Of a stretch of 64,000 bases of DNA, positions 3,610 to 59,300 are shown one piece after another (position 1 is the stretch's first letter; every line of letters begins with the position of its first letter). The notes under the pieces are model-generated. The model did not search any database, had not been told where the DNA came from, and was given only the letters and a program-made list of their open reading frames with translations. Origin of the DNA: a virus (taxonomy: Duplodnaviria > Caudoviricetes); the IMG/VR virus record IMGVR_UViG_3300002835_000097, positions 1 to 64,000 of that record; one strand, given 5' to 3'. The position numbers and the translations under genes are program-made.

Positions 3610-3663
3610 GCGAAATCTTTTATTTTTTTTATTTTTTTTAGAGAATATATTATTCTTTATTCT

Positions 3664-3680: not shown

Positions 3681-3692
3681 AGGGTCATTTAA

Positions 3693-18913: not shown

Positions 18914-18987
18914 GCTGGACAAAGTTAATATAATCAATATTATAGTATTAGATTCTATAATAGGATAACTCATAATATGGTTAAAAT

Positions 18988-21933: not shown

Positions 21934-21934
21934 G

Positions 21935-24009: not shown

Positions 24010-24188
24010 AAACTTTTGAAATCAATTGCATAATAGCAGATAAAGAAAATCCATCAGTTGAAAATGAAGATGTGATAGAGATTATTTTATATACAACAAT
24101 AATAGCAGAATCCTTAGAAGCTGCTATAGAAAAGATAAAATCTTTATATAATATAAAAACTATTATAGACATACAGGAAATAATATGA
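24006..24188 (+). CDS. hypothetical protein (60 aa)
   Basis: ATGA overlaps on both sides. Confidence 0.6.
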   Translation: MKTFEINCIIADKENPSVENEDVIEIILYTTIIAESLEAAIEKIKSLYNIKTIIDIQEII

Positions 24189-24880: not shown

Positions 24881-24887
24881 GTGTATA
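24880..24887 (+). promoter_or_regulatory. candidate late promoter GGTGTATA
   Basis: Intergenic, 36 bp before ATG 24916. Confidence 0.55.
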
Positions 24888-24915
24888 CTAATATAGAAAA
24901 CCATGGAGAAAATAC

Positions 24916-40197: not shown

Positions 40198-40491
40198 ATG
40201 GATTATCAACAACAACTAATTACTGAAATCGAAACACGATTAAAAACAACTATGATAGGTTCATTAGCAAGATTCGAACAATCTTTTGGTCATTTGTGGG
40301 AAGAACCGGGACCAGATCAGCAAGAATACATAGATCTTTGGGAGTATACTAGAAATTCTATTTTAAATAATGGAAATAAACAAATAAGATTAGCATTGGA
40401 GACTCTATCATCTGTGGTATATAGATCGTATAAAACTAAACAAACATATAATTTTAATAATAAGGAACTAGGAGATAAATATGAAAACTAA
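40198..40491 (+). CDS. hypothetical protein (97 aa)
   Basis: ORF in operon. Confidence 0.7.
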   Translation: MDYQQQLITEIETRLKTTMIGSLARFEQSFGHLWEEPGPDQQEYIDLWEYTRNSILNNGNKQIRLALETLSSVVYRSYKTKQTYNFNNKELGDKYEN

Positions 40492-41389
40492 AAATTTTAA
40501 GGTTACTATAGACGGTACAGAAAAAGAATTTGTTGTCAAGACACCATCATTAAATGATCAAAGAGAAGCACAAAAAGTGTATAATCAAGCTTTCACTGAT
40601 GCTATAAAAAGCAAAAGTGTTGTAAGAGCAAAGTTAGACGATCTTTTAGAAGATCAAGGTTTATGGAATGATGAGAAACAGGCTAAATTCACCACTTTAC
40701 AAAAAGAACTTTTAGACGGTGAAAAAAGACTAGCAAAGGGTGGATTTAGTTTAAATGAAGCCAAAGACCTAGCTATTAAAATGAAGGGCATTAGAGATGA
40801 GATACGAGATCTAATTAGTGTTAGAACTAGTTTAGATAATCATAGTGCCGAAGGTCAAGCTGATAATGCCAGGTTTAATTATTTGGTTAGTGTTTGTGTG
40901 GTGTATAATGATACTAAACAACCATACTTTAATAATATGGAAGATTATCTTAATAGGTCAACCGATCAGGTTGGTTTGTTAGGAGCGCAAAATTTGGCTA
41001 ATATGTTATATGGATTGGATAATGACTATGAAAGCAATCTGCCAGAAAACAAATTCTTAAAGAAATTTAAATTTGTTGACGATAAATTGCGACTTGTTGA
41101 TAAAAAAGGTAGGCTCGTTGATGCTGAAGGTAGACTAGTAGATGAAAGTGGTAGATTCATAGATGAAGAAGGGAATTTTGTTGATAAATATGGTAACAAG
41201 GTAAATTCTGATGGAGATTATCTGGTTGACCCTCAGCCGTTCCTTGATGATAATGGAAATCCAATTATTTTAGAAGAAGACAAAAAAGATGAACCAACAG
41301 CAGTACAAACAGAGACAGCAAAAGAACCCCCAGTTTCTGAACCACCAAAAAGCACTGTTGCAGAATCTACGGAGCCTGTTAGTTCATAA
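40481..41389 (+). CDS. putative tail assembly chaperone
   Basis: Directly upstream of TMP; coiled coil plus (V/I)D.xG(R/N) repeats; AGGAG RBS. Confidence 0.55.
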   Translation: MKTKNFKVTIDGTEKEFVVKTPSLNDQREAQKVYNQAFTDAIKSKSVVRAKLDDLLEDQGLWNDEKQAKFTTLQKELLDGEKRLAKGGFSLNEAKDLAIKMKGIRDEIRDLISVRTSLDNHSAEGQADNARFNYLVSVCVVYNDTKQPYFNNMEDYLNRSTDQVGLLGAQNLANMLYGLDNDYESNLPENKFLKKFKFVDDKLRLVDKKGRLVDAEGRLVDESGRFIDEEGNFVDKYGNKVNSDGDYLVDPQPFLDDNGNPIILEEDKKDEPTAVQTETAKEPPVSEPPKSTVAESTEPVSS

Positions 41390-41493: not shown

Positions 41494-44400
41494 ATGGCAA
41501 CTTTTAATCTAACAGCACAGTTGAATCTTAAAGGTCCAACAAACGTTAAGCAAATAGCTGCTCAAATTAAAAAAGATCTTGGCGCTCTTAATGCAAATGT
41601 ACAATTTAAACTTGATCCGGCAGCATCAAAAAATGTTGCAGCATTATCGTCTTCTTTAAAAGTTTTGAATGCTAATTTTGCCTCAACTGTCAAATCAGCC
41701 AATGCTGCCACATCAGCAATAAAGGCTTTTGGTAATAGCGTAAATTCTGTTAAAATTAACAATGTCCCTCAACAAATTAATCAAACTTCATCAGCAATTG
41801 CTAAATTAAATAAAGTATCCTCATCAACATCTGGAGGATTGCAAAATGCCGCAACAGAGATGCAGGAATTCGGCAAGCAAGCTGGTTTAGCAGTTAGAAG
41901 ATTCGTTGCATTTAGTGCTGTTACAAGTGTTATATATGGAGTAACAAATAGTATAAATAATGGTATACAGGCTTTTATTGATTATGATAAAGAGCTTGTA
42001 AAATTACAACAGGTTACTGGAGAATCTGCTGCCGGATTATCCAAACTACAATCTCAAATTAGTAATTTAGCTGTAGAATTTGGTGTTAGTTCTAAAGAGC
42101 TAACTCAAGTAGCATCAACATTAGCTCAGGCTGGTTTAAGTGCCAGAGAAACTGAGAAAGCTTTAAAAGCCTTAGCACTTAGTAGTTTAGCTCCGTCATT
42201 TGATAATATGAATGAGACTGTGGAAGGTAGTATTGCTATAATGAGACAGTTTGGTATTAGTGCTGCTGATTTGGAGGCATCATTAGGTGCGGTTAATACC
42301 GTGGCAGCAAGGTTCGCAGTAGAATCTAGTGACATCATTACCGCCGTGCAAAGAACAGGTAGCGTATTCGCTACTGCGAGTAAAGGGGTAAGCGAAGGAA
42401 AAGACGCTTTAAATGAATTTATTTCGGTATTTACCAGTGTTAGAGCAACTACCCGTGAAAGCGCTGAAACTATTGCTACTGGATTACGAACAATATTTAC
42501 TCGTATCCAAAGAGGAACAACGATAGACGCCCTAAAAGAGTTTGGTGTTAACTTAACAGATGCTGAGGGTAAGTTCGTTGGAGCGTATAAGGCTGTCGAA
42601 TTGTTAAGTAAAGGATTAGGTAAAATAGACCCTAGAAGTTTGGACTTTTCAAGAATAGTTGAAGAACTTGGTGGATTTAGACAAATTGGTAAAGTTATTC
42701 CATTAATTCAACAATTTAGTGTGGCTCAACAGGCGTTAAAAGTTGCTCAACAAGGACAAGGTTCGCTAGCTAAAGATGCAGCAACAGCACAATTAAGTTT
42801 AGCTAATCAAATAAGTAAAGTTCGTGAAGAATTTTTCTCACTATTTCGTGAAATAGGTCAATCCAAAGGATTTCAAAGTTTAATCAGAGGAGCGTTGTCT
42901 CTAACTAGTGGTTTGATAAAAGTAGCAGATGCTGTTAAAGGAATTCTACCAGCATTAGCAGTACTTGCAGCATTTAAGGGATTTAAAGCATTAACAGAAT
43001 TTACTACAGGATTTGCCACAGGAGTTAAAAGAGGACCAGATGGTAAAGCTAATGGCGGAGTTATAAGAAAATTCGCACGAGGTGGTGTTGTTCCTGGTAC
43101 TGGTAGTGGAGATACTGTACCAGCAATGTTAGAGCCAGGAGAATTTGTTATACGTAAAAAAGCTGTTGAAACTATTGGTACTGATAGTCTTCATAGTATG
43201 AATAAGTATGGAAGTGGTGGAAGTATACGAGCAGGAAAATCAAATAGAAGAAAAAGATTTGGGGGTGGAGGTAAACTATATGACGATATTGATGTTCAAG
43301 AATATTCTAAGTCTAACAAGCAGTATGCTGGTAGGCTCAAAGCTTATGATGCAGATAGTATAAATTTATTGGTTGATCCAACACAAACACTAGTTAATAA
43401 ACGTTTTAAAAAACTAACTGGCGATTTAATTTATCCTAGTGAAAAAGGTAAATTTAAAGTCACATCCAGACTTGAAGGAATAGATGCTTTTGAAATTAAA
43501 GCATCAAAAAAAGAAAGAGAAGAGTATGCTAGTCAAGGAGGAAAAGGTCCGGCATATGCTAGTAATAGAGAGAAAGGCAAAAGAGCCAAAGATATAACTA
43601 TAGATTTTATAAGTGGACTTGGTAAAGAAAAATTAGCTAAAATTTTTATCGACGCTAATAAAGTAGATTACTATGGCAGACCAATGGCGGAAATTGGTGC
43701 TCTTAATAAAAAATTAGTAGGAGAGAATGTTGCAAAATATAGTGGAACTAAAAAAGGTCAAGACATTATTCAAGCAGATAAACTAGCAAATAGACTAGAG
43801 ATAATGAAGAAAAATTCAGGATTCGGCAATACTAATAAGTCATCATGGGATAGGGTTATTAAAGATGATTATATGTTTAACTATATGCCAGCAGGATCTA
43901 AGGATAGGTTTAACAGTTCAGGGAATATAATACAAGACGACTCCCGGCCATTAAAAACTATCTCTGATATTGGTTTTATTAAGAAAATGACAGAGACTAA
44001 AGGATTGGCTAAGTTCATGGTTGGAGGAAAAGTAGAAAGAAAAATTGGAGTAGTTGATACGGACGTACTAAGAGATGAGGCTAATGCGGCGATAGTTAGG
44101 CCAGCAATGGAAAAGCTTGGAATAACTGATGTTAGTGACTATACAACAAAACTTGGAGAATTGGCAGGCAATGCTAGAAAAAGTGGATCGCTATCTAGGT
44201 TTAGAGCTATTGCTGGAGCTGCTGGAAGTGGAAAAAGCAGTTTAGCAACCGGAAAGGGAGCTAATGATGATGCTACTTTAAGAAAAACAATTCGCTCTCA
44301 AATATTAACGCCTGAAGATATAGACAAAGTTAATGAAGTTATAGTATTAACATCGACAGCTAGTCAGACTAAATTAGATGCTTATTTAAAAGATGTTGAT

Positions 44401-47400
44401 AGAGCATATGTATTAAGCTCTAATAGCAGAGAGGAACAAGATAGAGTTAGGTCAAATAGAGAGAGCAGAGACATTACAGGAGAAGGATTGTATGGTCGTA
44501 AACCAGGAACCACAAGAGCAGCTGATATTGATTTTGGTCTGGAAGAAACCATATTACGAGATGAACTTGGCAAAAGAGCCACAGTATTAGGAAGAAAAAA
44601 AGATAGTTTCGGTTTAAGACGTAAAAGAGAAAGCGAACTACCAGAAATAGTTCAGGCTGGTGGATTTTATATGGGTGGTTTTGCCCCACCAACAAGAGGC
44701 CATAGAGGAGCTTTAGATACTTTATTAGAAAACATGTTAGCAAAGAACCCAAACTCTTCTTTAGAAGATATTCTTGTTAGTGTTGCTCCTGACCTTCCAA
44801 TGATTGTTGATAAAGAAGGCATAGACCACGCTGCACGATATGGTATTTTCCCATCAGACATAAGAACCTTATTTAGCCAAATGAATTTTGGAAATGCTAT
44901 GATTAGCACTCAAAGCCAGACGGGTGGTGGTTTACCAAAATTTATGGAAGTTACTGATGCTGGAGATAGAAGAAAATTCGCCAGATTAAAAGGAGCCATG
45001 GCAATAACTTCTGGTAAAGACGATAAAACATTGGGCAAATACCAAAGAGCAGGAATAGACGTTACAGATATTCCTAGAATAGAAGATATTAGTGCTACTG
45101 CAGTTAGAGACGCATTATTTAATGGTGACGATAAAACACTTACTAGTTTAATGAATCCTGATATAGCATCAATATTAATGGGCAATAGAGCACAATTACG
45201 TAATCGTAGCACTATGGTTCCTATGCTCATCGAAGAAATACAAAAGTTTGTTGATCAAGATAAAGTACGATCCAATGCTGAGGTTACAGAAATATTATCA
45301 AATGCTCCTGGTGGTCCATATGGTAATGTTAGTGCTGATCTAAAGAAAAATTATCCAGAAATAGCTGAGCAAGTTAAGCAGATAAGAGACAAAAGAGATA
45401 GAGTATCTAAAGGAGCATTCGGCTATAGAGCATTTAATATAATAAGCGCCCTATCTGCCAAATATCCAGAAACTTATGGGTTAGACCCATCAAGAAAATC
45501 CGCCGTATCTGCGCAACCATCAGACATAACCAGAGAGGCCATAGCAGCACAAATTTCAGAACAGATGGCTGGTGAGTTTGGTGGAGTTCCAACAGCTATG
45601 CCTTCTGGACTAGAAGAGGCAATACTAAAAAATGTAGAAAAAGCCACCCAGGTCAAAAAGTCTTCTGGAATATTACCAACACAAGGATCAGAGATTCTAA
45701 AAAGATTTGGAACTCAAAGATTACCAAATGATCCAAGTTTTGGCCCATTCTCAGGAAAAACAGTAAGAGATACAGCCGAAGGAGGAAAATTAAAATACTG
45801 GAATTCTGCTTTTAGACCAGAAACAAAAGAAGATAAGCTCGCTTACTATATTGCAACAAGAGACTATCTAATAGACAAATTTAATGAATCACAAGGAATT
45901 CAAAAGGCTACAGCTCTAGAAGATACAACTAATGCTGTGTTATCTTCCAAACAATTAGGATTAGTTGGATTAAATCCGCTAGGATATACTGGATTATTGG
46001 GTCCAGAGACTTGGAATCTTGGAGTCGATCCGTCTGGCCAAGAAAGATCAATAGACGCTTCAATAGTACAAAGAGGACTACCAACAGAATTCCAAAACGT
46101 TATTGATTATCTTAGTGGACAAACAGCAGAAATAGTACAAGGAGCATCAAAGCTTCTTGGTATTACTCCTAAAGAATTAACTAAAAAACAAAGAGAAACA
46201 TTAGGACAAGGAAATATTGAGGGTGCTTTACTAGAACAAATTTTTGGATCAGCAGATGCCACAATATTAGACGATGCATTAAGAACAAGACCAATTGACT
46301 TTCCAATGGGTATCGGACCTAAAGCAGCAAAAATATTTGGTATCGATCCTGATATTCCAACAGAAGTTAAAAGAACAATAGATAGTAATAGTAGAGGTAA
46401 AGCTGTTGAAGAATTTCAAAAATATTTTAGACAACAATACGGCATTCCTGATCCAGAAAAAGTAACAGCTTTTGCTGACGGCGGAGAAGTATATACTCCA
46501 CAACAACTAGTCTCATTAGCCAAATACAGAACAGGACCATTTCCTGGTGGTGGAACTGATAGCGAATTTATAAATAGATATTTAGAAGATAATGATTCTT
46601 TCATGGAATATCTTAAAACTTTCCATGCTGATCCTCCAAAGGCGTATGATGCCACAAAGAATGCTGCAAAAGATTTATTGGAAATGTTTACTAGCCAAGA
46701 ATCAATGAGTGGCTCAAAGCGTTCTGGTAAATTATATTCCACTGTTGCTGGTGGTAAATTAAAAACCATTTTAACTCAAATTAATAATCCTTTAAACTCT
46801 AATAAAGATATTTCTGATGCTATTGGTAAAAACTTTAATTTAAATGGCTCATTATTATCAACTAGTGAATCCCCGGATACAGCTAGTGTATTTCAGCCAG
46901 AAAATGGTTCTAGTGCAATGTTGAGTATCATTAGAAATAAAAATATTCCATCTATTGATGTTGATAAGGCAATATTTGATACCTCCACAGAAGAAGATAT
47001 TATAAAAGCATTATCAAAATATATAGACCCTGTCTCTGGAAAAAGCGGAGCAGATTTTCTAAGCAGAAGTCGATCAGCAACACGAATAGAAAAAGAATTC
47101 ATTCTCCCACAAACTTCAAAATTTAGAATAGATGATATTGATAGAATATTTAGTAAAGATCAAGAAGATAAATTATTAGGTGGAAATATTCGTCATATAG
47201 AAGGAATGAAAGTTCAGCAGTTTAAAGATGGAGGAATGGCATTTGGTAAAGAAAATGAATTTGAAAAAATAAGACAAAAAATATTAAATCAATATCCAGA
47301 TATTAATTTTAGAATTTCCAGACGAAAGAATGGTTTTGGATACAATATATTAGGCGGACTAAAACAAGAAAGTAGTAACATTGGTAATTATGCAGAATTT

Positions 47401-50400
47401 AAGCAAGCTGGTAATCTTTCTAAAATACAAGAAGTTGCCGATAATATGGCATCCTCTCTGCTATATGAATATGGTCCAAATATAGATCCGTCTCTTCTAA
47501 AGAAGATGCAGAATAAAAGAAAATTTGCAAATGGTGGGTCTGCGCAGGATACTGTACCAGCATTATTAACTCCTGGTGAATTTGTTGTTAATAAAAAAGC
47601 AGCAGAAAAAATAGGATATGGCAAGTTAGAAAAATTAAATAAAGCAGATAAAATACAAGGATACAATAAAGGAGGAATTGTAGGAGGAGTACAAAGATTT
47701 GCTTTAGGTGGAGGTGTAGATGGCTTTCTTTCTGGATTACAAAGCATAGCAAGTAATTTAGGAAGAACACAAAATATTACTAATAATCGCCCAAATTCAA
47801 TAGATACTAGTACAATAGCTGTAGACCCATCTATTCTGCAAGATACAAAAGCATTTGTGGACACTCTTTATGATGCCGGAGACGGCATGAAGTATTTAAA
47901 TCGTTTATTAAATGAAAATAAACAATTATCTATACAAGCAGTATTAGAAGCTGGTAATAAAGATCTAGAAAGATTAAAAATTAGTGGAGCATCTATTGAT
48001 AAAATTATAGAAGCTGAAAAGGCATTGTCTAATATTAGAAATAAAGGACTTATTGATGTTACTAATCGTCAATTTTTAGAGTCTGGATTTAAAGAAAGTT
48101 CAGTTGGTAAAAAATTAGGATCAGGAGCTACGCAACAAAAAATATTATCTTTAGCAGAAAAAGAAGAGCGACGATTAATAGATAAAAGAAAAAAGGCTAT
48201 AGAAGCTGATATAGTATCATCATCCAAACAACCAATATCTCCATCAGACTTAGCTGATCAGGTCGCCCAAGCTATATCTTCTGAATTAAATGATATTAAA
48301 ACGCAAGCATTTTCTAGAGCTACAGCAGCGGCTACAGGAACAAAAACTTCTACTGGCATAAAAGGGAATATAACAGAAAGTGAATTAAAAAATCTAAATA
48401 TAACTGGAAATGATATTCAAAAATATATTTCTGATTCTATGAGAGATAGAAAAACTCTCAGACAAATGGATCAGCAGTTAATAGCTATGAGAATGGAAGA
48501 GTATAAGAATGCTGGAACTGTTAGAGGTATTAGCGTTGCTTCTGCAGAGGAAGCTAAAAAATTAGCACAGGAAGAAGTTAGCAAACGAAGAGAAGCTATA
48601 AATGATCTGGCAAAAATGAGAGGAGAACGAGGTGTTGGAGCTGCTGGATTAATGGATACTAGAAATAGTCCTATTAATCGAGCATTTAGAGAAAGATACT
48701 TTACTGGAGATCTAGGAAAAAGTATGCAGAGAGGATTGGGCGACATTGGATTAGCGGCAGGATTAGTTGCTGGACAAGGAGACAACATAGCATCAGCATT
48801 ATTTGATACTAAAACCGATAAAGGCAAAATACAAGCGGCAGATACAGGCGCAAGAATCGATAAAGCAGCAACAACACTGTCTGTTGGTCTAACAACATCA
48901 GCACAATTAGCTGCTATAAATCCTATGTTAGGAGCTGCTGCTGCTATAGGCACAGCACTGTATGCTGGCGCTGATGCTGTATATGATTTCTCAGGCACTG
49001 CCAAAAAAGCAGCTCAAGAAATGGCAAGAGCTTTATTAAATGATAAATTATCTGCTGCTAGTGATAATCTATCAAATGCTTTGGAAAAATTAAGCAGAGA
49101 TGCTAATAACGTTGAACTTAGAGCAAAAACAGCATCAACCATTAAAAGCTTAACAGATACTGCCCTGGAAAGCACAGCAGATACAGGAATAACAGGAAAG
49201 AATAAAGCAGAGACGGAGCGTAATTGGTCAGATTTTGGCAGAGGAATATTGTTGGCCATTGGAGAAATTGGAGTTGGTATGAATCCATTCTACCAAGACA
49301 TGGACCCTGTAACGCTTGCAAAATCCAAACAAGGCTCTTATGGCATGGAAGAAGCAAGAGTTGATGCTCAAAAAGAAGCAGAAAATTTTCAAAAAATAGC
49401 TAATGCTGGATATACCGATCTAGAAAGGCTATATGCAAAAGGATTCACTAATGATCAAATTATGGATCCTACTAATGAAGCTGGAAATATAGTTAGAGAA
49501 TCTATAAAAGGCATGATTCTAGCTGATTCTGAAAAACGAGCTTTATATATGGCTGCCGGACCACAAGGTAAAGAAGCTATTGCTGGTACAGCAGCGCAAC
49601 AAGCATTTTTAGCTAATGATGAATTAGCAAAAGCTTCTCAAGAAGCTGCAAAATTAGCAAGAGCTATGGAAATTGCTGATAAAGCAGGACGAAGATTAGC
49701 AGCAAGTTTTGATAAAATAGCAGATATAGTAAATGAATCTGTTAATAGAATATCATTTGAGTCTGATGCTAGAGTAGAAGCGGCAAACCAATATGCATCA
49801 TCATTACGTGGAGAGTCCAGAGGTTCTGGTCCAAAACTAAGAGAAAGAAATATTTTAGAAAATCCCAATGCATATTCTGAAGCAGAATTTACTGCAGCAC
49901 TACAAAGTGCCACAGCAGGATTAAGTGACGGACTTAGAAAACAACTGATTGGCGGTGCTCAATTACAACAAAACATACCAAAAAATATAACAAAAAGCAT
50001 AGCAACTGTTTTAGACAAGAGCGCCGGCTCAGGAGTAGATGAACTTAAAAAAGCAGCAGTTGATACTGCTAAAAATGAAATAGAAAATAATGCTAATTTA
50101 TCTAGACAACAAAAAGATGAATTAAAACAAATAGCTACGGCCAGGATAGAAACTATAGCTAAAAAAGCTAAAGATAACAATGCCGATAATACTACGCAAG
50201 TATCAGAATTTAGAAAAGAACTAGAAGAAGGTACTAGTGTTTTAGGTGATTTTGGTAAAAAATTATTAGATTCTATAAAAGGTCTATCATCATTCAAAGA
50301 AGGAGCATTAGATAAATTTGCTAAGGGCTTGAATGAAGCTAGCAAAGCAGCTAAAGAATCTCAAAACTATTTTAGAAGATCAAGAGAAATCTCTAACGAA

Positions 50401-53400
50401 GGCAATATGAACCTAAGAGAAGTCTTGAGTGGATACGGTGAAACATATGATGAACAATTTAATAGAATTATGGGTGATGTTGGTGGTTTAGCAGGAGGTG
50501 AAACAACTGTTCAGGGAATTAAAAATAGACAAATAATGCTTGCTGAGCAAAGAGATACTCTACAGAATCAACAAAATACCCTTACAGATAAAGACGCTTT
50601 GCGTAACAATGTTGAACAGCTTAATAAATTAGATGATCAATTAAGAGATAATAGAGAAGCATTAGATATGCTTGCTAATAGTACAGAATTAGTAGATAAA
50701 GCTTTCAACAACTTGCAAAATACTGCAGAATTACAGAATAATCGACAAAATTTTGTTAATCAATTATTAACTAATACGCCAGAAGAAGCAGATAAACTTA
50801 ATCAAAGTTTTATTAGATTACAACGAAATCTTTCTGGAGGACTCAATAGTGCATATAATCAAAGAGACGCTAGAAAAGCATTTAATGAAACATTATTTAA
50901 GACCGGAAATGTAAGAGAAGCAACTCGCGCCGGAAATACTGTTCTTGCTAATCAAAGAAAAGAAACACTATCATTGATGCAGGATCCCGGATTCAGAGCT
51001 GCTCAAGAATTACAGATAAGAAATCAATATGCTCAGAACCGAGGAAGACCAGGAGTAGATGCTGATCAAGCAGTAGCAGAATATTTTCAAAAACAGCAAT
51101 TACAAGTAACCAAACAAATGGCGATAGAAAGTGGAATGATAAATAATCCACTTGTTCAACAGTCATTGGCTGTCCTAGAGGATCGCAAAGCAGATCCTGC
51201 TATGCAACAGGCTGCTGAAAGATATTTAGAAGCTGTTGGATTAAGAGCCGATGCTACAAAAGCACAAGGAGAACTGGCTTTATTAGAATCACAATCCATA
51301 CTAAAAAATTCTAATGATAATTTACGTATTAGTATTGATGATTTAAGAGCAAGCATCGAAGGAAATCTGAATAATGCTAATATAGGTATGGACGCTGCTG
51401 GTAACAGAATAGTTAATCCTGGGGTGGCTGTTCCTGCTCCTGCTGCGGCCAGATCATCTGGAGGATTAATATATGCTAGTAGTGGAAAGCTTATTGATTT
51501 TAAGCCTAAAGGTACCGACACTGTTCCTGCCATGTTAAGTCCTGGCGAATTTGTTATCAATTCTAAGTCTACACAAAAACATTTACCATTATTGAAAGCT
51601 ATTAATAGTGGAAATTATAGTAAGGGTGGAGTGGTTTATTTACAAAAGGGTGGTAAAGCAGGAACTAATATTGACGAAGATATAGATCTAAATAAAGATG
51701 GAACAATTACAGATGAAGAACGACAGATTTATCAACGTCGAAAAGAATTATATCTAACAAGATCATTTGGACAAATGGATTATAGACAAGCATATTTTAC
51801 TAGACCATTCGGATATAGTAAAGGAGGGCCAGTAAATTATTTAGCCAATGGTGGCGAAGTACAAAAAAGAAAAGAAGAAAGAATAGATGCTCAAAAAGAA
51901 TCATGGATGATGTCAGAAGCAGCCGGAAGAAGACCTGATGAGGTAGTTTCTAGAACATCATCTAGTTGGGCAGAATCTCAGGTAGGTAGTAATAAATGGC
52001 AAAGTATGACAGAAGAACAAAGACAATCAGAAACTAAAAAATATGAACCAGAATTTCAAAACAGATGGGATAATTATAATAATAGACAGAATGACGCACA
52101 ACTCAGAAGTGCTAACGATGCAGGATATGGCAGTATAAAGGAGGATCCTAACTCTGGTATTGTTGGGGTTAATTTTTATAATGAAGAAAAGAAAAGAGCT
52201 AAAGAAAGATTTGAAAAAGCTAGTGCGGCTGAAGCTGAAACGGAAGCATCAAATAATCAAATGACTCAAAGCTCTATGGAGCAACCAGCTCCAGTAGCAG
52301 TTCCTCTACCCGATATGACAAAAATACCTTGGGGCAGAGGAGCGGCAATAAAGATTGGACCAACACAAGAAACTATCAATGAGAGAAAAAAAATTAAATC
52401 TGAAGAGTCACGAAGACGATCATTATGGCTTAAAGGAAGCAAAGGAATAAGCTCAGAAGAAGAAACAGAATATGCAACTTTAAAATCTAATCAAATAAAA
52501 AGAGAGGTAGGCCCGTATACTGTAGAAAAAGATCGTAATATTTCTTCTTTAGTAAATAGTGCCTATCGTAAAGGTGCTCAGTCTAATGAGATAACATCAG
52601 AAGAAAGATCAGCCCTAAAAGAGTTAGGCTCTGATCCTAGAAATAGAGGAAGTTTACGAGCCCTATCATTTAGTGCTGCGTTGCCTCCAATAACTAGTAA
52701 CGGAGGAAAACCCGACCCTATTGATCCAGCAACTGTCGCTAGAATAAATCAGAGTGCAAGACCTGACATAGCCGATCCTGCAGTCTCTTCAGGTGTTCAA
52801 ACAGGAAATCCTTCAGAAGGAATGGTTAATCGTACAGCTAATAATAGAGCTTATGAGGCTAATCAGGCTAAAAAGAGAAAAATGGCTGGATTAGCATTAG
52901 GATTGTCAACAGAGGCTGATCAAGAAACAGCAGACCTTTTGGAACAAATACTTTTTGGTGGACCTATAGAGAGACCTATAGAGAATAATCCAGCAAGAGA
53001 AAAAAGACAAGCAGCTTTAACTACAAATATTATAAACCAAGCCTTAAATAAAAAAACACCAGATTATTCCATAGCCACCCCAACATCTGGTGATCAAACC
53101 ACTAAAACTGAACGACTAACCAAAGAATTTATTGGATCTTCAGCAAGCAGACGAGCATTTAATGCAGTTGCTAATAATGGCGGAACATTAGCAGAAGCCA
53201 ATGCAGCAGCTAAAAATGCCATACAATCACAGGCTGAAAGATCAAAAAGCATAGTGGAAAAAAGAAAAGACGAAGGTAAAAAAGTAATAGACTATTATGA
53301 ACAAAGACTAAATGAAGCCAGAGCAGACAACGACGGAGATGGACGACCAGACTTTTCAAACGAAGAAATAGACAAGAGAAAAAGAGAAAGAGATAGCGCA

Positions 53401-56346
53401 AGAGTTAATTTTTCTGGTAACATGAATCCTATTGGTCGTCAGCCAGAATCATATTACTCATCTAGAAAAAATGCTGAAAGATGGGGAGCTAAACAATATA
53501 CTAGTGCTGAGGACTACTTTGCTGCTCAAGGAGCAAGACAAGATTATCTTGACAGACAAGCAAGAATAAGAAAAGAAAATGAGGCATCTGCTGAAGGATT
53601 TAAGGCAGGGGTTTCCCATGTTGTTAATATGACGGAACCACAATATGCTGCGGCATTTAGATCCACATATGGAGATACAGCAGCCGATGCTCTTGGTAGA
53701 GCTACTAGAATGGATCCATCAGTAGGGCGTAATAATGAAAATACAAGAATAAAAGACGAAGAGAAAAAAACACGAGAAACATTCGATAGGGCTAAAAATT
53801 ATGAGGGGCCACTAGGAAATGCTGCTTATGTTGGAGATACTTTAACACAAGCTATTGTTGGAGCATTACCACAAGATCGTGCTCGTAATGATAGTCAAGA
53901 CATGAAAGACATTAATGCTCGTCGTGATGCTTATAGAGAAAGAGAAAAACTAGCTGGAAATAAAGATTTTAGTTTTGAAAATAGTAGTAATTCTTTTTAT
54001 AGAGGTCTTGGAACTACAGGCAGATACATTGGAGATCTTACTGCAGTAGCTACTAGTCCCTTTAGAATTATTGGCGGAGGTGGGGGAGCATTGTTGGGTG
54101 GGGCATCATTAGGCATTGCAGAAACTCAAAAGGTGCTTGGTTATGACGATACTATGGCTAGAGCTTTTGGCGATAAGGCATTAAGTCAAGCGTCTGATTC
54201 TGTTGGTGCTGGTATTTCAGATATTAATAGACTAGCTGAACAAACAGGCAGATTAGCCACCTATGCCGGTATTCCTTTTGGATTAGAAGCAGATCCTTTA
54301 CTTAAAAATAATTCAGCAGGAATGATATTCGACGAAAGAAATGTTTCTGAAGCTGGACCTTTAGGGCCCGTAGTTAGGGCCGCTAATGTGATTAGAGATG
54401 TTACTGCTGATTCGGTTATGCCATTACCAATTCCTGGAGCTGGTAAAGTTAGAAGCGTTGCTGGCAGATTGGATGATATGGACAAAGCTGCAGAAAAAGC
54501 CTATAAAGTTTCGCAAAGAGCCTACGAAGCAGCACAAAGATCATCCATAGCCAGTGCCACAGAATCTACTATTCCTAAAATGATCCAAAATTATGTAGAA
54601 AAATTGCCAATACCTTCAGAGGCTACAGGTTCTATAGGGTCCATGGGACGGTTAAGCAGAGGGGAAGCTTTATCTAGATCATTAAAAGATTTGAGAGAAG
54701 TAAAAGTGCCGTCATTACGCAGTGACCCTATGGATATGTCTAAACTTGGTAAATCAGCAAAACAATCACAACCAATATTAGATCCTTTACAAGAAGCTGC
54801 CAAATCAGCTGCTAAGCCCAGAATTACGGCAGCAGAATATACAAAACGTGCAGAAGAAGCAAGATCTGCTGCCAGAGCCAGCAAGCCAAGAGTTACTGCT
54901 GAAGAATTTATGGCCAGAACAAAACCAGATGCAACAACATTACCAATCAAACGACCACTTCCAGAAGTTATAGATGTTACTGATACCAAAACACTAAGAC
55001 AAGTTCAAGAGAATTTAGCTAGTGATTTGGCTGATTATGCTACTCCAGCAAAAAGAGATCAGTTCTTGTCAGAATTTGTTGAAAAGTCTACACCGCAATC
55101 GGTATCTGTTGATCCTAAAGCACTAGCTGAGGCCAAAAAGAAAGTTGCTAAGACCATAGGTCCGGTAAAAGCCCCAGACGGCATGGTTACTTCAGGTAAC
55201 AAAATGATATTTAAGGACGCTAAGACAAAAACATCAGTAGTACAGCATGAATTAGCCCACTCTTTTCAAACTAAAACTGCTGGAATGAAGGGTGATCCTT
55301 TTGGAGGTAAAAAAATACAGCTATCAGGACTAATGAAGGAAATCGAGTCATTTGTTGATGATCCGAAGGGATTAGTTGCTATAACAGGAGGCAAAGGATA
55401 TTCTGCAAGTCAAATCAAAAAAGCCCCATATGAACTACTAAGCACCTTGATGCAACATATGGAAAAGGTAAAGGGTAATAAAAGAGCAGAAAATATTTTA
55501 AAAAAATTAATGAAATTCCATGGATATAGTAAGGGAGGATTAGTATATGCTAATAATGGAGCTTTTATTAATGCTAACAATGGAACTACAGATGATACTC
55601 CTGCAATGTTAACTAAAGGAGAATTTGTAATAAATAGACAAGCTACTAAAAAACATATGCCACTTCTCAATGCTATTAATAGTGGTCATTTAAATAGAGG
55701 CGGAATTGTTAATTATTTGGCCAATGGAGGTATAGTCGGTCCACAATATCTTGCTGCTGGTGGTCGATCAATGGCTAGTATATCAAATTCTAATATATTA
55801 CCAGAACTATTAAATAAATTATCAAATACTGGCATGAATTCTTCTGGTGGAGCCTCACAACTAGCACCTCTTTCTAATGTTGTACAGACACTTAAACAAA
55901 CCGCATCCTCTGCCGGTGGTGTATCTAATAATGTTAGTATAGATACGGCTAATATATCATCATCCATACAGGATGCTGTTACAAATGCTATTGGTCAATT
56001 TAATGAATATACAGAGCAAATTGGGGCTAATTTTACTGAACAGTTTGGTGCTGCACAAAAAAGTTTGTCATCATCTATCAACACATTCCAAACAGCCACC
56101 GCTCAATTTGGAGAACATGCAAATGCTATACCAACGTCATTATCTGCTAATGTTACGCAAACAACATCACTTCACCATATTGGTTTAGAATCTATAAAAG
56201 GTAATATGGAAAAAAATATATACGACAATACTTCTGTTAGTTCAAAAAATATTGCCCAAGACACCGTCATGCAATATGATAAAACTGTTTTTGAAGGAGG
56301 CATGAATAGTGCCGCTAAACCAAGTATTATGGGACGACCATCATAA
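41494..56346 (+). CDS. giant tape measure protein (4950 aa) with embedded enzyme domains
   Basis: TP901-type TMP core near the N-terminus (LVKLQQVTG...LAQAGL...ESAETIATGLRTIFTRI), four DT(V)PAxL..GEFV repeats, inserted catalytic motifs. Confidence 0.88.
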   Translation: MATFNLTAQLNLKGPTNVKQIAAQIKKDLGALNANVQFKLDPAASKNVAALSSSLKVLNANFASTVKSANAATSAIKAFGNSVNSVKINNVPQQINQTSSAIAKLNKVSSSTSGGLQNAATEMQEFGKQAGLAVRRFVAFSAVTSVIYGVTNSINNGIQAFIDYDKELVKLQQVTGESAAGLSKLQSQISNLAVEFGVSSKELTQVASTLAQAGLSARETEKALKALALSSLAPSFDNMNETVEGSIAIMRQFGISAADLEASLGAVNTVAARFAVESSDIITAVQRTGSVFATASKGVSEGKDALNEFISVFTSVRATTRESAETIATGLRTIFTRIQRGTTIDALKEFGVNLTDAEGKFVGAYKAVELLSKGLGKIDPRSLDFSRIVEELGGFRQIGKVIPLIQQFSVAQQALKVAQQGQGSLAKDAATAQLSLANQISKVREEFFSLFREIGQSKGFQSLIRGALSLTSGLIKVADAVKGILPALAVLAAFKGFKALTEFTTGFATGVKRGPDGKANGGVIRKFARGGVVPGTGSGDTVPAMLEPGEFVIRKKAVETIGTDSLHSMNKYGSGGSIRAGKSNRRKRFGGGGKLYDDIDVQEYSKSNKQYAGRLKAYDADSINLLVDPTQTLVNKRFKKLTGDLIYPSEKGKFKVTSRLEGIDAFEIKASKKEREEYASQGGKGPAYASNREKGKRAKDITIDFISGLGKEKLAKIFIDANKVDYYGRPMAEIGALNKKLVGENVAKYSGTKKGQDIIQADKLANRLEIMKKNSGFGNTNKSSWDRVIKDDYMFNYMPAGSKDRFNSSGNIIQDDSRPLKTISDIGFIKKMTETKGLAKFMVGGKVERKIGVVDTDVLRDEANAAIVRPAMEKLGITDVSDYTTKLGELAGNARKSGSLSRFRAIAGAAGSGKSSLATGKGANDDATLRKTIRSQILTPEDIDKVNEVIVLTSTASQTKLDAYLKDVDRAYVLSSNSREEQDRVRSNRESRDITGEGLYGRKPGTTRAADIDFGLEETILRDELGKRATVLGRKKDSFGLRRKRESELPEIVQAGGFYMGGFAPPTRGHRGALDTLLENMLAKNPNSSLEDILVSVAPDLPMIVDKEGIDHAARYGIFPSDIRTLFSQMNFGNAMISTQSQTGGGLPKFMEVTDAGDRRKFARLKGAMAITSGKDDKTLGKYQRAGIDVTDIPRIEDISATAVRDALFNGDDKTLTSLMNPDIASILMGNRAQLRNRSTMVPMLIEEIQKFVDQDKVRSNAEVTEILSNAPGGPYGNVSADLKKNYPEIAEQVKQIRDKRDRVSKGAFGYRAFNIISALSAKYPETYGLDPSRKSAVSAQPSDITREAIAAQISEQMAGEFGGVPTAMPSGLEEAILKNVEKATQVKKSSGILPTQGSEILKRFGTQRLPNDPSFGPFSGKTVRDTAEGGKLKYWNSAFRPETKEDKLAYYIATRDYLIDKFNESQGIQKATALEDTTNAVLSSKQLGLVGLNPLGYTGLLGPETWNLGVDPSGQERSIDASIVQRGLPTEFQNVIDYLSGQTAEIVQGASKLLGITPKELTKKQRETLGQGNIEGALLEQIFGSADATILDDALRTRPIDFPMGIGPKAAKIFGIDPDIPTEVKRTIDSNSRGKAVEEFQKYFRQQYGIPDPEKVTAFADGGEVYTPQQLVSLAKYRTGPFPGGGTDSEFINRYLEDNDSFMEYLKTFHADPPKAYDATKNAAKDLLEMFTSQESMSGSKRSGKLYSTVAGGKLKTILTQINNPLNSNKDISDAIGKNFNLNGSLLSTSESPDTASVFQPENGSSAMLSIIRNKNIPSIDVDKAIFDTSTEEDIIKALSKYIDPVSGKSGADFLSRSRSATRIEKEFILPQTSKFRIDDIDRIFSKDQEDKLLGGNIRHIEGMKVQQFKDGGMAFGKENEFEKIRQKILNQYPDINFRISRRKNGFGYNILGGLKQESSNIGNYAEFKQAGNLSKIQEVADNMASSLLYEYGPNIDPSLLKKMQNKRKFANGGSAQDTVPALLTPGEFVVNKKAAEKIGYGKLEKLNKADKIQGYNKGGIVGGVQRFALGGGVDGFLSGLQSIASNLGRTQNITNNRPNSIDTSTIAVDPSILQDTKAFVDTLYDAGDGMKYLNRLLNENKQLSIQAVLEAGNKDLERLKISGASIDKIIEAEKALSNIRNKGLIDVTNRQFLESGFKESSVGKKLGSGATQQKILSLAEKEERRLIDKRKKAIEADIVSSSKQPISPSDLADQVAQAISSELNDIKTQAFSRATAAATGTKTSTGIKGNITESELKNLNITGNDIQKYISDSMRDRKTLRQMDQQLIAMRMEEYKNAGTVRGISVASAEEAKKLAQEEVSKRREAINDLAKMRGERGVGAAGLMDTRNSPINRAFRERYFTGDLGKSMQRGLGDIGLAAGLVAGQGDNIASALFDTKTDKGKIQAADTGARIDKAATTLSVGLTTSAQLAAINPMLGAAAAIGTALYAGADAVYDFSGTAKKAAQEMARALLNDKLSAASDNLSNALEKLSRDANNVELRAKTASTIKSLTDTALESTADTGITGKNKAETERNWSDFGRGILLAIGEIGVGMNPFYQDMDPVTLAKSKQGSYGMEEARVDAQKEAENFQKIANAGYTDLERLYAKGFTNDQIMDPTNEAGNIVRESIKGMILADSEKRALYMAAGPQGKEAIAGTAAQQAFLANDELAKASQEAAKLARAMEIADKAGRRLAASFDKIADIVNESVNRISFESDARVEAANQYASSLRGESRGSGPKLRERNILENPNAYSEAEFTAALQSATAGLSDGLRKQLIGGAQLQQNIPKNITKSIATVLDKSAGSGVDELKKAAVDTAKNEIENNANLSRQQKDELKQIATARIETIAKKAKDNNADNTTQVSEFRKELEEGTSVLGDFGKKLLDSIKGLSSFKEGALDKFAKGLNEASKAAKESQNYFRRSREISNEGNMNLREVLSGYGETYDEQFNRIMGDVGGLAGGETTVQGIKNRQIMLAEQRDTLQNQQNTLTDKDALRNNVEQLNKLDDQLRDNREALDMLANSTELVDKAFNNLQNTAELQNNRQNFVNQLLTNTPEEADKLNQSFIRLQRNLSGGLNSAYNQRDARKAFNETLFKTGNVREATRAGNTVLANQRKETLSLMQDPGFRAAQELQIRNQYAQNRGRPGVDADQAVAEYFQKQQLQVTKQMAIESGMINNPLVQQSLAVLEDRKADPAMQQAAERYLEAVGLRADATKAQGELALLESQSILKNSNDNLRISIDDLRASIEGNLNNANIGMDAAGNRIVNPGVAVPAPAAARSSGGLIYASSGKLIDFKPKGTDTVPAMLSPGEFVINSKSTQKHLPLLKAINSGNYSKGGVVYLQKGGKAGTNIDEDIDLNKDGTITDEERQIYQRRKELYLTRSFGQMDYRQAYFTRPFGYSKGGPVNYLANGGEVQKRKEERIDAQKESWMMSEAAGRRPDEVVSRTSSSWAESQVGSNKWQSMTEEQRQSETKKYEPEFQNRWDNYNNRQNDAQLRSANDAGYGSIKEDPNSGIVGVNFYNEEKKRAKERFEKASAAEAETEASNNQMTQSSMEQPAPVAVPLPDMTKIPWGRGAAIKIGPTQETINERKKIKSEESRRRSLWLKGSKGISSEEETEYATLKSNQIKREVGPYTVEKDRNISSLVNSAYRKGAQSNEITSEERSALKELGSDPRNRGSLRALSFSAALPPITSNGGKPDPIDPATVARINQSARPDIADPAVSSGVQTGNPSEGMVNRTANNRAYEANQAKKRKMAGLALGLSTEADQETADLLEQILFGGPIERPIENNPAREKRQAALTTNIINQALNKKTPDYSIATPTSGDQTTKTERLTKEFIGSSASRRAFNAVANNGGTLAEANAAAKNAIQSQAERSKSIVEKRKDEGKKVIDYYEQRLNEARADNDGDGRPDFSNEEIDKRKRERDSARVNFSGNMNPIGRQPESYYSSRKNAERWGAKQYTSAEDYFAAQGARQDYLDRQARIRKENEASAEGFKAGVSHVVNMTEPQYAAAFRSTYGDTAADALGRATRMDPSVGRNNENTRIKDEEKKTRETFDRAKNYEGPLGNAAYVGDTLTQAIVGALPQDRARNDSQDMKDINARRDAYREREKLAGNKDFSFENSSNSFYRGLGTTGRYIGDLTAVATSPFRIIGGGGGALLGGASLGIAETQKVLGYDDTMARAFGDKALSQASDSVGAGISDINRLAEQTGRLATYAGIPFGLEADPLLKNNSAGMIFDERNVSEAGPLGPVVRAANVIRDVTADSVMPLPIPGAGKVRSVAGRLDDMDKAAEKAYKVSQRAYEAAQRSSIASATESTIPKMIQNYVEKLPIPSEATGSIGSMGRLSRGEALSRSLKDLREVKVPSLRSDPMDMSKLGKSAKQSQPILDPLQEAAKSAAKPRITAAEYTKRAEEARSAARASKPRVTAEEFMARTKPDATTLPIKRPLPEVIDVTDTKTLRQVQENLASDLADYATPAKRDQFLSEFVEKSTPQSVSVDPKALAEAKKKVAKTIGPVKAPDGMVTSGNKMIFKDAKTKTSVVQHELAHSFQTKTAGMKGDPFGGKKIQLSGLMKEIESFVDDPKGLVAITGGKGYSASQIKKAPYELLSTLMQHMEKVKGNKRAENILKKLMKFHGYSKGGLVYANNGAFINANNGTTDDTPAMLTKGEFVINRQATKKHMPLLNAINSGHLNRGGIVNYLANGGIVGPQYLAAGGRSMASISNSNILPELLNKLSNTGMNSSGGASQLAPLSNVVQTLKQTASSAGGVSNNVSIDTANISSSIQDAVTNAIGQFNEYTEQIGANFTEQFGAAQKSLSSSINTFQTATAQFGEHANAIPTSLSANVTQTTSLHHIGLESIKGNMEKNIYDNTSVSSKNIAQDTVMQYDKTVFEGGMNSAAKPSIMGRPS

Positions 56347-56380: not shown

Positions 56381-59300
56381 ATGATAAATAATAAACTAAT
56401 AAAAGTATTTGATAATGTTGGATTTTCATTTACGATAGAAAATGATCATTTTAAAATTTTATCAAAACTTAAAAATTATAATTCATTAAATTCTACTCAT
56501 GTTGGTTTTTATATACCTTATATAGCAAGAAATATATCTTATCAATATTTTGAAACTGGTGTTGGAGAAATAGTATTTGATGGCGCTGGTAATATCTCCG
56601 TTAAAAGAAACTCTATTTCATCATCTTCTAATGAAAATAAATCAGTTTTCTTTCCAGATTCTGGTAATGAATTTTATGTTTTTGCTAATCAAAGTTATTT
56701 TGATACACTATTAAATAATGTTATTATATTAGATCGTAGCTCAATATTAGATAATATAAGTGCTATATATTTAGTAGATACTTCTAATGGAGACATATCT
56801 CTAACATTACCAAGTCCATCTAAAAAAGATATTTTTCTAGAATTTAAAGTAATACAATCATCTAATGCTTTAACTATTAGAGATTATAACGATAGAGTAT
56901 TAACTGTTCTTGTGGGTAGCAATAATTATATCAGACTGGTTTCTACTGGCGAGGATTGGGTAGTACTAAACAAAATATCAGAGTCTGCTAATATACAGTC
57001 ATTATCTGAAAATGATTCAGTATCAATGTTATCTAATCCTGTAGGCTCTAACTATTCTTTACAATATAAATATGATGATACAACTTTTGGATCCTCACAA
57101 GCGTACTGGTATTCTACTGCTAGTGGACAAGCTCTATTATTGGGTGCTGATAACCTCAATGATGCGAACTCGGTTCTTGCGACATCAGGAACAAATAATT
57201 TTCTATTTAATAAAAACAATGCAGCTAATGATTTTATAGTTTATGGTAGTGGTACAGATAATAGAAATTTATTTTTCTCGTATGATGGTAAATTAGGTAT
57301 TAATATGCCATCAGGAGTAAAGCCATCAACATTATTACACATAGTTAATAATCTATGTCAAAATTGTCAAGAAGGTATTAGATTAGAAAATAGGGCCTCG
57401 ACTTATCCTACAAATATTACTTTATATTATAAACCATCAACTAATATTCCAGCTAATACTATAGTCTCAAGACTACAATTATCAGCATCTAATTCTTCTG
57501 GCATCCAAACAAACTATGGAAAAATAGAAGCTAGAGCAGTAAGTTCATCTCATGGATCCGAAAGAGGCGCGATTGATTTGATAGTTGTATCAGGAAGTAC
57601 AGGGGTAAAAACACTCAATACTAGTGTTGAAAATACTATTTTAGGATATCCAAACACTAAAATTACTATTAATAATAATGGAAATATGATACTGTCTAAT
57701 GGGTCAAACCAGATAGAGGTCGGATCCTCATCAACCACAGTATCATCTGAAACAGTAACAATAACTGGTATTTCATATTTAAATACAATTAATTCTCAAA
57801 ATATAACTTCTCCAAATATTTATGTTAGCAGTTTATCTCAAAGTGGATTGTTAACAATGTCTAATGGTAAAATTGCTAATAGTCAGATAACAATTAATAG
57901 CAATGGGTCTTTAAATTTACCTATTCCCTCAAACAGAATACTCAGTACAACATCCAATGGCTTGGTAACTGGTATTTATAATACAGATGATTATTTCTTA
58001 ACGCAAAAAGATATAACATGGAATAAATATTCTCCAAAATCAGCTACAGTATGTTTAAGACAAGTTATATTAGTAAATCCAATTAGTTCAAATGAGTTTT
58101 CTGTTGATGATCAAATACTAATTAGTTTATCGGGCACTAATTATTATAGAAATATAGATACAATAACACTAAATGGTGGTAATCAAATTACAGAAATGTT
58201 ATTAGATACAGCCGTTCCTTTTGGTGATACTAACGATATTACTATACAGTCTATTACCAAGGGTGGATATTTAAGTCTTTTTAGATACGCAGACAATGAA
58301 ACTTCCGACTCAACATCTCATATTTTGAGCATTAGACCCAATTTCAGTACAGTATTTAATACATCCAAAAAAGATACAAATTTTGAAATCTATGGATTGA
58401 ATAATAGTCCAGCTTTATTTGTACAAGCTAGTGGTTCAAGTGTAGGAATCAATACATCAAACTTATTCACTATACCATCTGGGCAAAATGTAATTTTTCA
58501 ACAACCCAGTAACATTCCAGCAAGTTTAACAGTTAGTGGCTGGCTGTATTCAGATAATATTATGGTTGGATCAGCAAGCTCTGATGTTCCCGCGCTAGTC
58601 AGTCCAGGCATAATAGAATCAAGTGGAATAAGAGCCAAAAAAGTACAGTACATAAGTCTTGAACAAATAGATATTTCGGGAAATGTAATATCATCATCAA
58701 CTTCTTCAATAATAAACAATAAAGTTGTAACTACTTTTGATCAGGGTATCAGAGCCTATGCTAATACTGGTGACCCAGGTTTATATTTGTATCCCAAAAT
58801 TAATAATGCATTGAGTGGAAATGCTTATGGTGGAGTTTCTTTTACTACATTTTTAGACAGAGCCAAGTCAACTGCATCAGGATGGTCTTATGATAGAAAA
58901 TCTAAAACCACTATTAATACTGATACTCCATATATTTTAGGTTCATTAGCAACTGGAACATACGAAGCTAATGGTATAACAGTAACAGGATATGGTTATT
59001 TATATTCAGATTTAACCGTAAATGGTATTGCTTACGCATCCGAAATAGTATCTGAAGATATATATTTAAGACCAGCTCCAAGTACAAATAATACTGGTAA
59101 ATATATAGCAAATGCATTTTTAACTTTAGATCGTAATGGCAAAATAGTTTCACAAATTCCAACAGCCAATTACACAACTCCAACTGCTCCTCAAAATCTA
59201 TCAGCAACACAAGGCAACGGTATTGGTAATGGTGAGGTTTCTTTATCTTGGACAGCTCCTCAAAGTAATGGCGGCACTTCAATACTAGCTTATATACTAG

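Follow-up and report, generated by a model that had tools for sequence, protein, structure and literature searches.

A 4950-residue tape measure protein from an uncultured phage, with enzyme-like modules set between recurrent junction motifs

The window analysed here comprises the first 64 kb of an 88-kb viral record in IMG/VR (IMGVR_UViG_3300002835_000097; CheckV completeness 59%). The gene under discussion is one uninterrupted frame of 4950 amino acids on the plus strand (41494..56346), which encodes the tail tape measure protein of a siphovirus-type phage. The phage has a large genome and is known from aquatic metagenomes, not from culture. The protein is about five times as large as the usual tape measure, and enzyme-like modules built into it account for the excess. 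In our view this tape measure has probably grown into a modular protein of the polyvalent type, with slots closed by a recurrent unit (REP) and with modules that are delivered to the host at infection.

A normal tape measure core at the N-terminus of this open reading frame (ORF) had been proposed in a first-pass annotation made by a model from the sequence, and this was borne out. PF10145 (PhageMin_Tail) matches residues 188-380 with 78.1 bits against a cut-off of 33.2 (E 1.1e-21) and is the sole above-threshold Pfam match on the whole protein, while five tape measure families of PHROGs cover residues 18-790. This TP901-type core (N-core; aa 1-520, 41494..43053, on the plus strand like every module described below) has hydrophobic stretches at aa 130-150 and 474-501 in a hydropathy scan, and its nearest counterpart in an isolate is YomI of SPbeta, with approximately 25% identity. 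An assembly artefact could be ruled out, because the single ORF is kept in 83 independent contigs.

The motif D(T)xPAxLxxGEFV is present in exactly four copies, at aa 540, 2019, 3342 and 4701 (DNA 43111, 47548, 51517 and 55594), each where the first-pass annotation had placed a copy of DT(V)PAxL..GEFV. Every copy belongs to a unit of 50-70 residues consisting of an [FY]xxGG linker, DTVPAxLxPGEFV, a helix and a second xxGG linker. The linker has the form aromatic-x-x-G-G-x-hydrophobic and is also found on its own, outside the REPs, at aa 844, 1663 and 1913. A hidden Markov model (HMM) made from copy 1 recovers all four copies, the first two of which share 77% DNA identity over 61 nt. REP1 (aa 518-592, 43045..43269) carries GG linkers and the motif DTVPAMLEPGEFV; REP2 lies at aa 2009-2078 (47518..47727), REP3 at aa 3320-3390 (51451..51663) and REP4 at aa 4678-4760 (55525..55773). 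A tblastn search with REP3 matched 252 phage records, at one place per record, and 35 of the 40 matches listed were annotated as tape measure. REP4 together with the C-terminal end matches the tape measure family phrog_25241 (profile positions 693-753 of 810; E 1.8e-7), and the sole match of a DNA search of isolated phages was an 86-nt REP motif in cyanophage P-TIM68, in a gene at the position of gp29 (tape measure). REP is therefore a general tape measure motif, and it is the presence of four copies in one protein, rather than the motif itself, that is unusual.

Relatives were recruited with the region between REP1 and REP2 (block A) as the query, which gave at least 83 proteins on metagenome contigs of up to 248 kb. 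These 83 range from 2733 to 7724 aa; precomputed annotations place PF10145 in 74 of them and SNase, ADPrib_exo_Tox, HIGH_NTase1_ass or EF-hand domains in a few. HMMs of 16 modules were built from the window protein and run on 90 proteins. The order commonly found is N-core, REP, slot 1, a P-loop module (PL), a nucleotidyltransferase (NT), X, PD, slot 2, REP, the mid region, REP, further REP-closed slots and the C-terminal end. REP occurs in 88 of the 90 proteins (395 copies), PD in 86, X in 62, and PL and NT in 78 each, the last two frequencies being biased high because block A was the search query. The staphylococcal-nuclease-like (SN), ADP-ribosyltransferase-like (ART-like) and HExxH (ZN) modules are found in 27, 26 and 11 proteins, and the pieces B1, B2 and B3 of block B, the region between REP3 and REP4, in 9, 5 and 6. 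The number of REPs rises with protein length (Spearman 0.86, n=76). Module placement also varies: in 13 proteins the ART-like module precedes PL, in 10 it follows PD and in three it separates NT from X, and SN is also found after REP2 in four proteins. According to precomputed Pfam matches, slots of other relatives hold HTH_3 (PF01381)/PF13443 (P0091), PF06009 (P0111/P0114), PF28597 (P0045/P0049) and PF03983 (P0011/P0022-24), so that the cargo repertoire of the family is wider than that seen in the window.

Sliding identity of the window protein against 15 relatives is strongly mosaic, with jumps between >95% and 20-40% at the [FY]xxGG linkers and the REPs. Compared with P0029, P0032 and L010, identity is >=95% in the N-core, 20-50% over aa 600-1350, 90-100% over aa 1400-1650, 20-40% over aa 1650-2000, 80-100% from REP2 to REP3, 20-40% in block B, and 85-100% past REP4. 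With L003 the pattern is reversed: here it is block A that is 95-100% identical, against 30-60% for the mid region. At the level of single residues, the switches lie at linkers, namely past RFGGGGK after REP1 (the P0029 breakpoint follows it directly), at KF.VGGKV before PL, at F.DGGE after PD and at QQF.DGG after the ART-like module, and also on entering REP2 and REP4 and on leaving REP3; identity to L003 and P0029 resumes at FANGGS.QDTVPALL in REP2. In a family-wide border test, which asked for a linker within 40 aa of a module border, one was found at 69 of 74 PL starts, 78 of 82 PD ends, 24 of 29 SN starts and 12 of 12 ZN ends, compared to a fraction of about 0.12 for random positions. Scores were low for the start (0/25) and end (7/25) of the ART-like module, for the start of ZN (0/12) and for the end of SN (12/29); in the case of the ART-like module this is partly because the HMM borders miss the linker positions.

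Since identity jumps exactly at linkers and REPs, cassette exchange between related phages, with junctions at both, is well supported. It had been suggested that the repeats bracketing the two blocks act as cargo-exchange points. Breakpoints do fall at the REPs, but the junctions extend beyond these four, for short [FY]xxGG linkers flank the modules, and a junction motif bounds every single module, not just each block. Alignment of related tape measures was expected to reveal cargo that differs between conserved repeats, and it did, the content not being identical across relatives; in block A, however, the core of P-loop, nucleotidyltransferase and X-PD is conserved and not freely exchanged.

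The claim that several unrelated enzyme-like modules are carried by one tape measure also held, the set being SN-like, P-loop, HIGH nucleotidyltransferase, ART-like and HExxH. All of the enzyme motifs read in series along block A are present, with Pfam scores that are subthreshold in the window protein itself; profile and fold work strengthened the nucleotidyltransferase and, to a lesser degree, the P-loop, SNase-like and ART-like assignments, but PD-(D/E)xK stayed at the level of a motif.

The best-supported module is NT (aa 1046-1370, 44629..45603), a HIGH-signature nucleotidyltransferase resembling NMNAT, NaMNAT and PPAT, with a helical extension. Its two motifs, GGFxPxTxGH and ISxTxVR, do not vary in any of the 15 rows of one alignment and are conserved to 90% or more in alignments of 34-39 rows. 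A first AlphaFold2 (AF2) run on aa 553-1700 with 22 rows reached a mean pLDDT of 45.7, and its model returned nothing usable from Foldseek or VIA, NadM appearing only at Z 4.5 and rank 36. The second run (aa 848-1930; 36 rows, including divergent full-length relatives) gave a mean pLDDT of 70, with values of 80-94 across most of aa 848-1657. This model was searched whole, and NT filled the match lists, leaving X-PD and the P-loop barely covered. The best 18 VIA rows are all HIGH-family nucleotidyltransferases with Z of 7.7-10.3, among them PPAT 4nah (Z 10.3, rmsd 2.7, 143 of 159 aligned), NadM (Z 10.1), NMNAT 1f9a (Z 9.9), NadD, TmcAL and NadR (Z 7.8-7.9). Foldseek found NadM, NMNAT and PPAT at a probability of 1.00, the best E being only 1.8e-3, and in BFVD the matches were cytidyltransferase-like and zeta-domain phage proteins, with only two rows at E <= 0.001. 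By profile, the module matches PDB entry 3gmi (E 0.0011) and an NMNAT (E 0.66). Family scores were E 0.0024 for the cytidyltransferase phrog_395, 0.068 for HIGH_NTase1_ass and 0.093 for NCBIfam; no curated score threshold was reached by NT in the window protein, and NCBIfam gave nothing below E 0.03. A profile of the whole core recovered designed armadillo repeats, which we regard as chance. The modelled fold thus places NT among the HIGH nucleotidyltransferases at superfamily level, a level at which the substrate cannot be named; PPAT, ATP sulfurylase and TmcAL match it about equally well.

The preceding PL module (aa 848-1045, 44035..44628) has a Walker A motif, G..GSGKS, of which the Gly and Lys are at least 90% conserved, and a pLDDT of 80-94 in the second model. 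In VIA its closest matches are zeta toxin 6epg_B (Z 7.4, rmsd 4.3, 158 aligned), UMP kinase (Z 5.9) and AvrRxo1 (Z 5.7); Foldseek gives 6eph with a probability of 0.98 (E 2.2e-3), and in Pfam PhoH and nSTAND1 are subthreshold at E 0.12-0.13. A fold closest to zeta toxin, then to UMP kinase and AvrRxo1, is suggested by the model, though not decisively, and the module may be described as zeta-toxin- or nucleotide-kinase-like. Slot 1 is occupied by SN (aa 593-847, 43270..44034), in which the motifs D.D, RLxGxDxFE and YGR are invariant in five of five rows and align with the equivalent catalytic positions of SNase (the Asp/Arg/Glu constellation). Among the 60 matches listed for its profile against PDB sequences, only SNase/thermonuclease appears, with a best E of 0.004. 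There is no Pfam SNase (PF00565) match to this module in the window protein; the same module in the relative P0084 reaches E 0.028, also subthreshold, and in the first AF2 model the region has a pLDDT below 35.

X-PD (aa 1371-1666, 45604..46491) is the most strongly conserved part of the family. It ends in GNIEG ... IDFP ... TEVKR followed by an ADGGE linker, with E, D, T, K and R of the motif at least 90% conserved, and the second AF2 model shows few strands there at a pLDDT of 60-89. No fold or family match to X-PD was obtained by sequence profile, in the ESM Atlas, or by VIA on the whole model, where NT filled the fold lists. In seven further IMG/VR loci (L020-L026) what is shared of the core is confined to its final 80-110 aa, the PD mini-domain, approximately 650-780 aa past the N-core, and PD therefore travels as an independent unit. 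Slot 2 contains the ART-like module (aa 1667-1917, 46492..47244), identified by Pfam ADPrib_exo_Tox (PF03496) and by STS and ExE motifs that are kept in the family alignment. The window copy is subthreshold (15.2 bits against a cut-off of 23.4; E 0.014), and a homologous copy in P0066, linked to it by BLAST at E 1e-4 to 1e-9, lies above the cut-off with 31.6 bits (E 1.3e-7). Against PDB the ART profile gave only spurious ubiquitin rows. Between this module and REP2 is the Y module (aa 1918-2008, 47245..47517), which is present in 8 of 90 proteins.

In block B, the interior of slot 3 (aa 3391-4559, 51664..55170) is hypervariable, any 50-aa bin being common to only 3-16 of the 83 relatives, and has no Pfam, PHROG or PDB match. 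An EF-hand had been proposed for this block. One calcium-binding-type loop (aa 3398-3409, 51685..51720) does fit the canonical 12-residue pattern, but the Pfam match (EF-hand_5, E 0.054) is subthreshold and the window protein contains no second loop, EF-hands being normally paired; family-wide the pattern occurs in 12 of 84 proteins (13 matches versus 2.0 in shuffles). The HExxH of block B was confirmed at aa 4585. It belongs to ZN (aa 4560-4677, 55171..55524), a minimal putative zincin-like peptidase recognized by conservation of its motif: of 25 aligned homologues, 24 keep HExxH and all 25 a downstream Glu, and in the aligned rows the module always stands immediately before a REP. ZN is rare, with only 27 matching representatives among 1.84 billion proteins, and a pattern scan of IMG/VR gave three contigs, all already in the set. 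Its profile has no match among PDB sequences; Zn_peptidase_2 is subthreshold in the relative P0212 (E 0.0011), and the ESM Atlas returned unnamed viral clusters at 0.85-0.87 and weak leads to LPD23 and LPD1 at 0.78-0.79. A Gly-rich hydrophobic run, IIGGGGGALLGGASLGIA, with the appearance of a glycine zipper, is found at aa 4190-4210 of block B (approximately 54061-54123), and the P0084 tape measure matches Pfam Gly-zipper_Omp at aa 1615-1655 (E 0.0042). The run in block B may be a membrane-insertion element.

The remainder of the protein, which the first-pass annotation had read as helical, is tape-measure-like in amino-acid composition. The mid backbone (aa 2079-3319, 47728..51450) is tape-measure-like filler by composition and hydropathy, with a hydrophobic stretch at aa 2472-2496; it has no family match in Pfam or PHROGs, and its HMM, MIDb, finds it in 84 of the 90 proteins. 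The C-terminal end (aa 4761-4950, 55774..56346) is rich in Ser, Thr, Asn and Gln, matches the tape measure family phrog_36688 (E 0.0019) and is present in 22 of 90. With the N-core and the REPs, these two regions form the constant backbone into which the slots are set. Among shorter proteins, the N-core as query retrieved 2063 matches, from which 27 small relatives were chosen (at least 1958 aa, on contigs of at least 50 kb). These 27 tape measures (1958-2671 aa; contigs of 51-227 kb) consist of N-core, REP, PD in 15 cases, REP and MIDb, and the module HMMs found PL, NT, SN, ART or ZN in none of them. A backbone of approximately 2000-2700 aa therefore exists without enzymes, which agrees with the earlier estimate of about 1960 aa of non-cargo sequence in the window protein. 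The core-cargo alignment had no match in GTDB genomes, and the N-core alignment matched 13 loci there, all in metagenome-assembled genomes whose labels span eight or more unrelated taxa; because these labels contradict one another, they do not point to a host. Free-standing copies of the core cargo were absent among the 8000 candidates sharing most words, which were scored and contained only six tape measure fragments.

At infection the tape measure is the first component to leave the tail, and it enters the envelope; the modules would therefore reach the host ahead of phage gene expression. With the tape measure exiting first, approximately three copies of each module would arrive in the host envelope or cytoplasm before the DNA. 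Chemistry of the ATP and NAD type points to the cytoplasm as the site of action. The modules may be released through cleavage at GG linkers by the HExxH module, and tail length is probably set by the backbone rather than by all 4950 residues. The tail lumen is about 4 nm wide and a residue occupies about 133 cubic angstroms; by simple arithmetic from these constants three 4950-aa chains need approximately 160 nm of fully filled lumen, so that a tail whose length of about 300 nm is dictated by the backbone alone could hold the modules compactly.

The protein combines two known kinds, enzyme-bearing tape measures and polyvalent proteins. The tape measure of TM4 is said to have an Rpf-like motif and pb2 of T5 a peptidase. 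Enzyme-bearing tape measures such as SPbeta YomI, a transglycosylase, have the same role, a PF10145-type core and a catalytic part within the ruler. They carry one cell-wall-directed activity in ~800-2300 aa, whereas the window protein has five or more unrelated cytoplasmic-type modules, several REP-closed slots, 4950 aa (up to 7724 in the family) and cassette exchange. Polyvalent proteins, as described in the main text of Iyer et al. 2017 (PMC5512222), are injected multidomain proteins of phages and conjugative elements, with ARTs, zeta-like kinases and metallopeptidases of the HExxH+Glu type, the last being proposed to free domains. The window protein shares with them the many unrelated effector domains on one polypeptide, and its putative ART-, zeta-kinase- and HExxH+Glu-type modules overlap with their repertoire; the class is characterized by two to fifteen such domains per phage polypeptide, and the window protein falls within that range. 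The carriers in that text are head or pilot proteins (N4 vRNAP, DdrB, MuF) and not the tail ruler. "Tape measure" and "TMP" have no occurrence in the main text, supplements aside, nor do "NMNAT" and "SNase" occur there, and "nucleotidyltransferase" appears twice. In polymorphic toxins (Zhang et al. 2012, PMC3482391) and in MuF-toxin fusions (PMC5512222), a constant delivery part is likewise combined with variable enzymatic cassettes that recombine at short conserved junctions. Polymorphic toxins vary one C-terminal toxin, whereas here the slots are serial and internal, with [FY]xxGG or REP junctions.

NT shares HIGH, ISxTxxR and a Rossmann-type fold (VIA Z 8-10) with the NMNAT/NaMNAT/PPAT family and with NadR, and a P-loop kinase-like domain adjoins it as in NadR; the order of the two domains is reversed, and they are embedded in a structural protein instead of forming a free enzyme. 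Phage NAD+ reconstitution includes a pathway, NARP2, that uses NMN ligation. By analogy, and speculatively, a kinase beside an NMNAT-like enzyme recalls both NadR and phage NAD+ reconstitution. We found no published description of a tape measure carrying such domains in the literature exclusive of supplements, where such architectures may be listed.

Several points weigh against delivery of the modules from REP-closed slots. All of the window's own modules score below the Pfam thresholds, and Foldseek gave no match at E <= 0.001 for either model. The SNase-like call is weak, with E of 0.004 to 0.028, and the PD-(D/E)xK identity of X-PD, read from its motif, is unproven. At the motif-1 position the aligned rows of the ART-like module read LY[S/T/A], without the NAD-binding Arg, and the module has a pLDDT below 50 in the second model. 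As PD is present in small enzyme-free relatives, it may be a structural part of the backbone rather than cargo. Approximately 1100 aa of block B are without assignment after Pfam, PHROG and PDB searches. Recruitment with block A biases the frequency of the P-loop/nucleotidyltransferase core, and a tblastn search of phage isolates with the core cargo gave no match and no cultured relative. Folded domains in a narrow tail tube are a steric problem, and in mycobacteriophage TM4 an embedded motif reportedly counts towards tail length.

A further-reaching version of the delivery reading, which we consider unlikely though not far-fetched, makes the protein the tail-ruler counterpart of polymorphic toxins. 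The linkers would be cleavage sites as well as junctions, the chain would be compact and tail length uncoupled from it, and the kinase and NMNAT-like pair (with X-PD), the nucleases and the ART-like modules would be freed in the cytoplasm before phage expression, with a possible use in rebuilding or re-routing NAD+ or other nucleotides ahead of abortive-infection immunity.

Quite unlikely, in our judgement, is that the protein is a ruler and nothing else, its size simply matching a tail of great length (up to ~740 nm), and that the enzyme-like modules are decayed or co-opted spacers, or aids in crossing the envelope, and do not reach the host as working enzymes. By PF10145 and PHROGs the protein is a true tape measure, its REPs scale in number with length, the ART-like module lacks the motif-1 Arg, much of block B is rich in charged residues and without assignment, and the TM4 motif is said to be a precedent for insertions that count for length. 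Mere spacers, however, would have no need of P-loop, HIGH nucleotidyltransferase and SNase-like motifs of catalytic type that are invariant or at least 90% conserved in rows down to ~30% identity, and the nucleotidyltransferase is modelled as a confident globular Rossmann-type domain, not as an extended helix.

Very unlikely is a late polyprotein, cut at its GG linkers in the producing cell by the HExxH module or another protease, so that the tail receives the backbone alone, while the enzymes act late or are packed in some other place. Linkers at nearly every module border and the position of the HExxH module next to a REP are consistent with this, and tape measures (lambda H, T5 pb2) are reportedly trimmed by proteolysis. 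According to the main text of PMC5512222, DdrB of P1 is processed before packaging. With ZN in only 11 of 90 family proteins, cleavage in cis cannot be general, and excision of internal modules would fragment the backbone, since they sit between the N-core and the C-terminal end. Action outside the cytoplasm during penetration, for instance by a nuclease on extracellular or periplasmic DNA or in calcium-dependent steps, would suit the cell-wall hydrolases usual in tape measures (SPbeta YomI is annotated as a transglycosylase), the textbook role of SNase as a secreted calcium-dependent nuclease and the EF-hand-like loop, but is highly improbable. Pfam detects no lysozyme, transglycosylase or M23 domain in the window protein, and P-loop kinases, NMNAT/PPAT-type transferases and ARTs need cytoplasmic ATP or NAD+.

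Directly 5′ of the tape measure gene are ORFs of 97 aa (40198-40491) and 302 aa (40481-41389), which share 11 nt and of which the second is read in the +1 frame with respect to the other, an arrangement like that of the G/GT pair of tail-assembly chaperones. Farther upstream (16448-28188) three large ORFs of 821, 981 and 1090 aa have N-terminal Mtd_N and/or BppL_N domains, typical of receptor-binding or fibre proteins; their position 5′ of the tape measure is an unusual gene order. On the 3′ side (56381-59899 and 63278-87981 of the 88-kb record) follow ORFs of 1172 (with an fn3 domain), 1462, 884, 463, 645, 2168 and 2544 aa, all presumably tail-tip or fibre genes. Neither the 97- and 302-aa ORFs nor the large downstream ORFs have a PHROG match. 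The first 4 kb (1-4000) have a G+C content of 0.41-0.44, against ~0.32 elsewhere, and mostly short minus-strand ORFs, and look like a module of different kind or origin. The 88-kb record yielded no tRNA.

If the modules are delivered, the tail ruler would be a first-in injector of effectors, a route of counter-defence preceding phage expression that we did not find described in the literature searched. The family also holds modules without known relatives, namely X-PD, ZN and block B, and its slots bounded by linkers or REPs could guide the design of phage tails loaded with proteins. With one N-core shared by proteins that span a four-fold range, from 1958 to 7724 aa, these phages constitute a natural test of the rule that tail length equals tape measure length.

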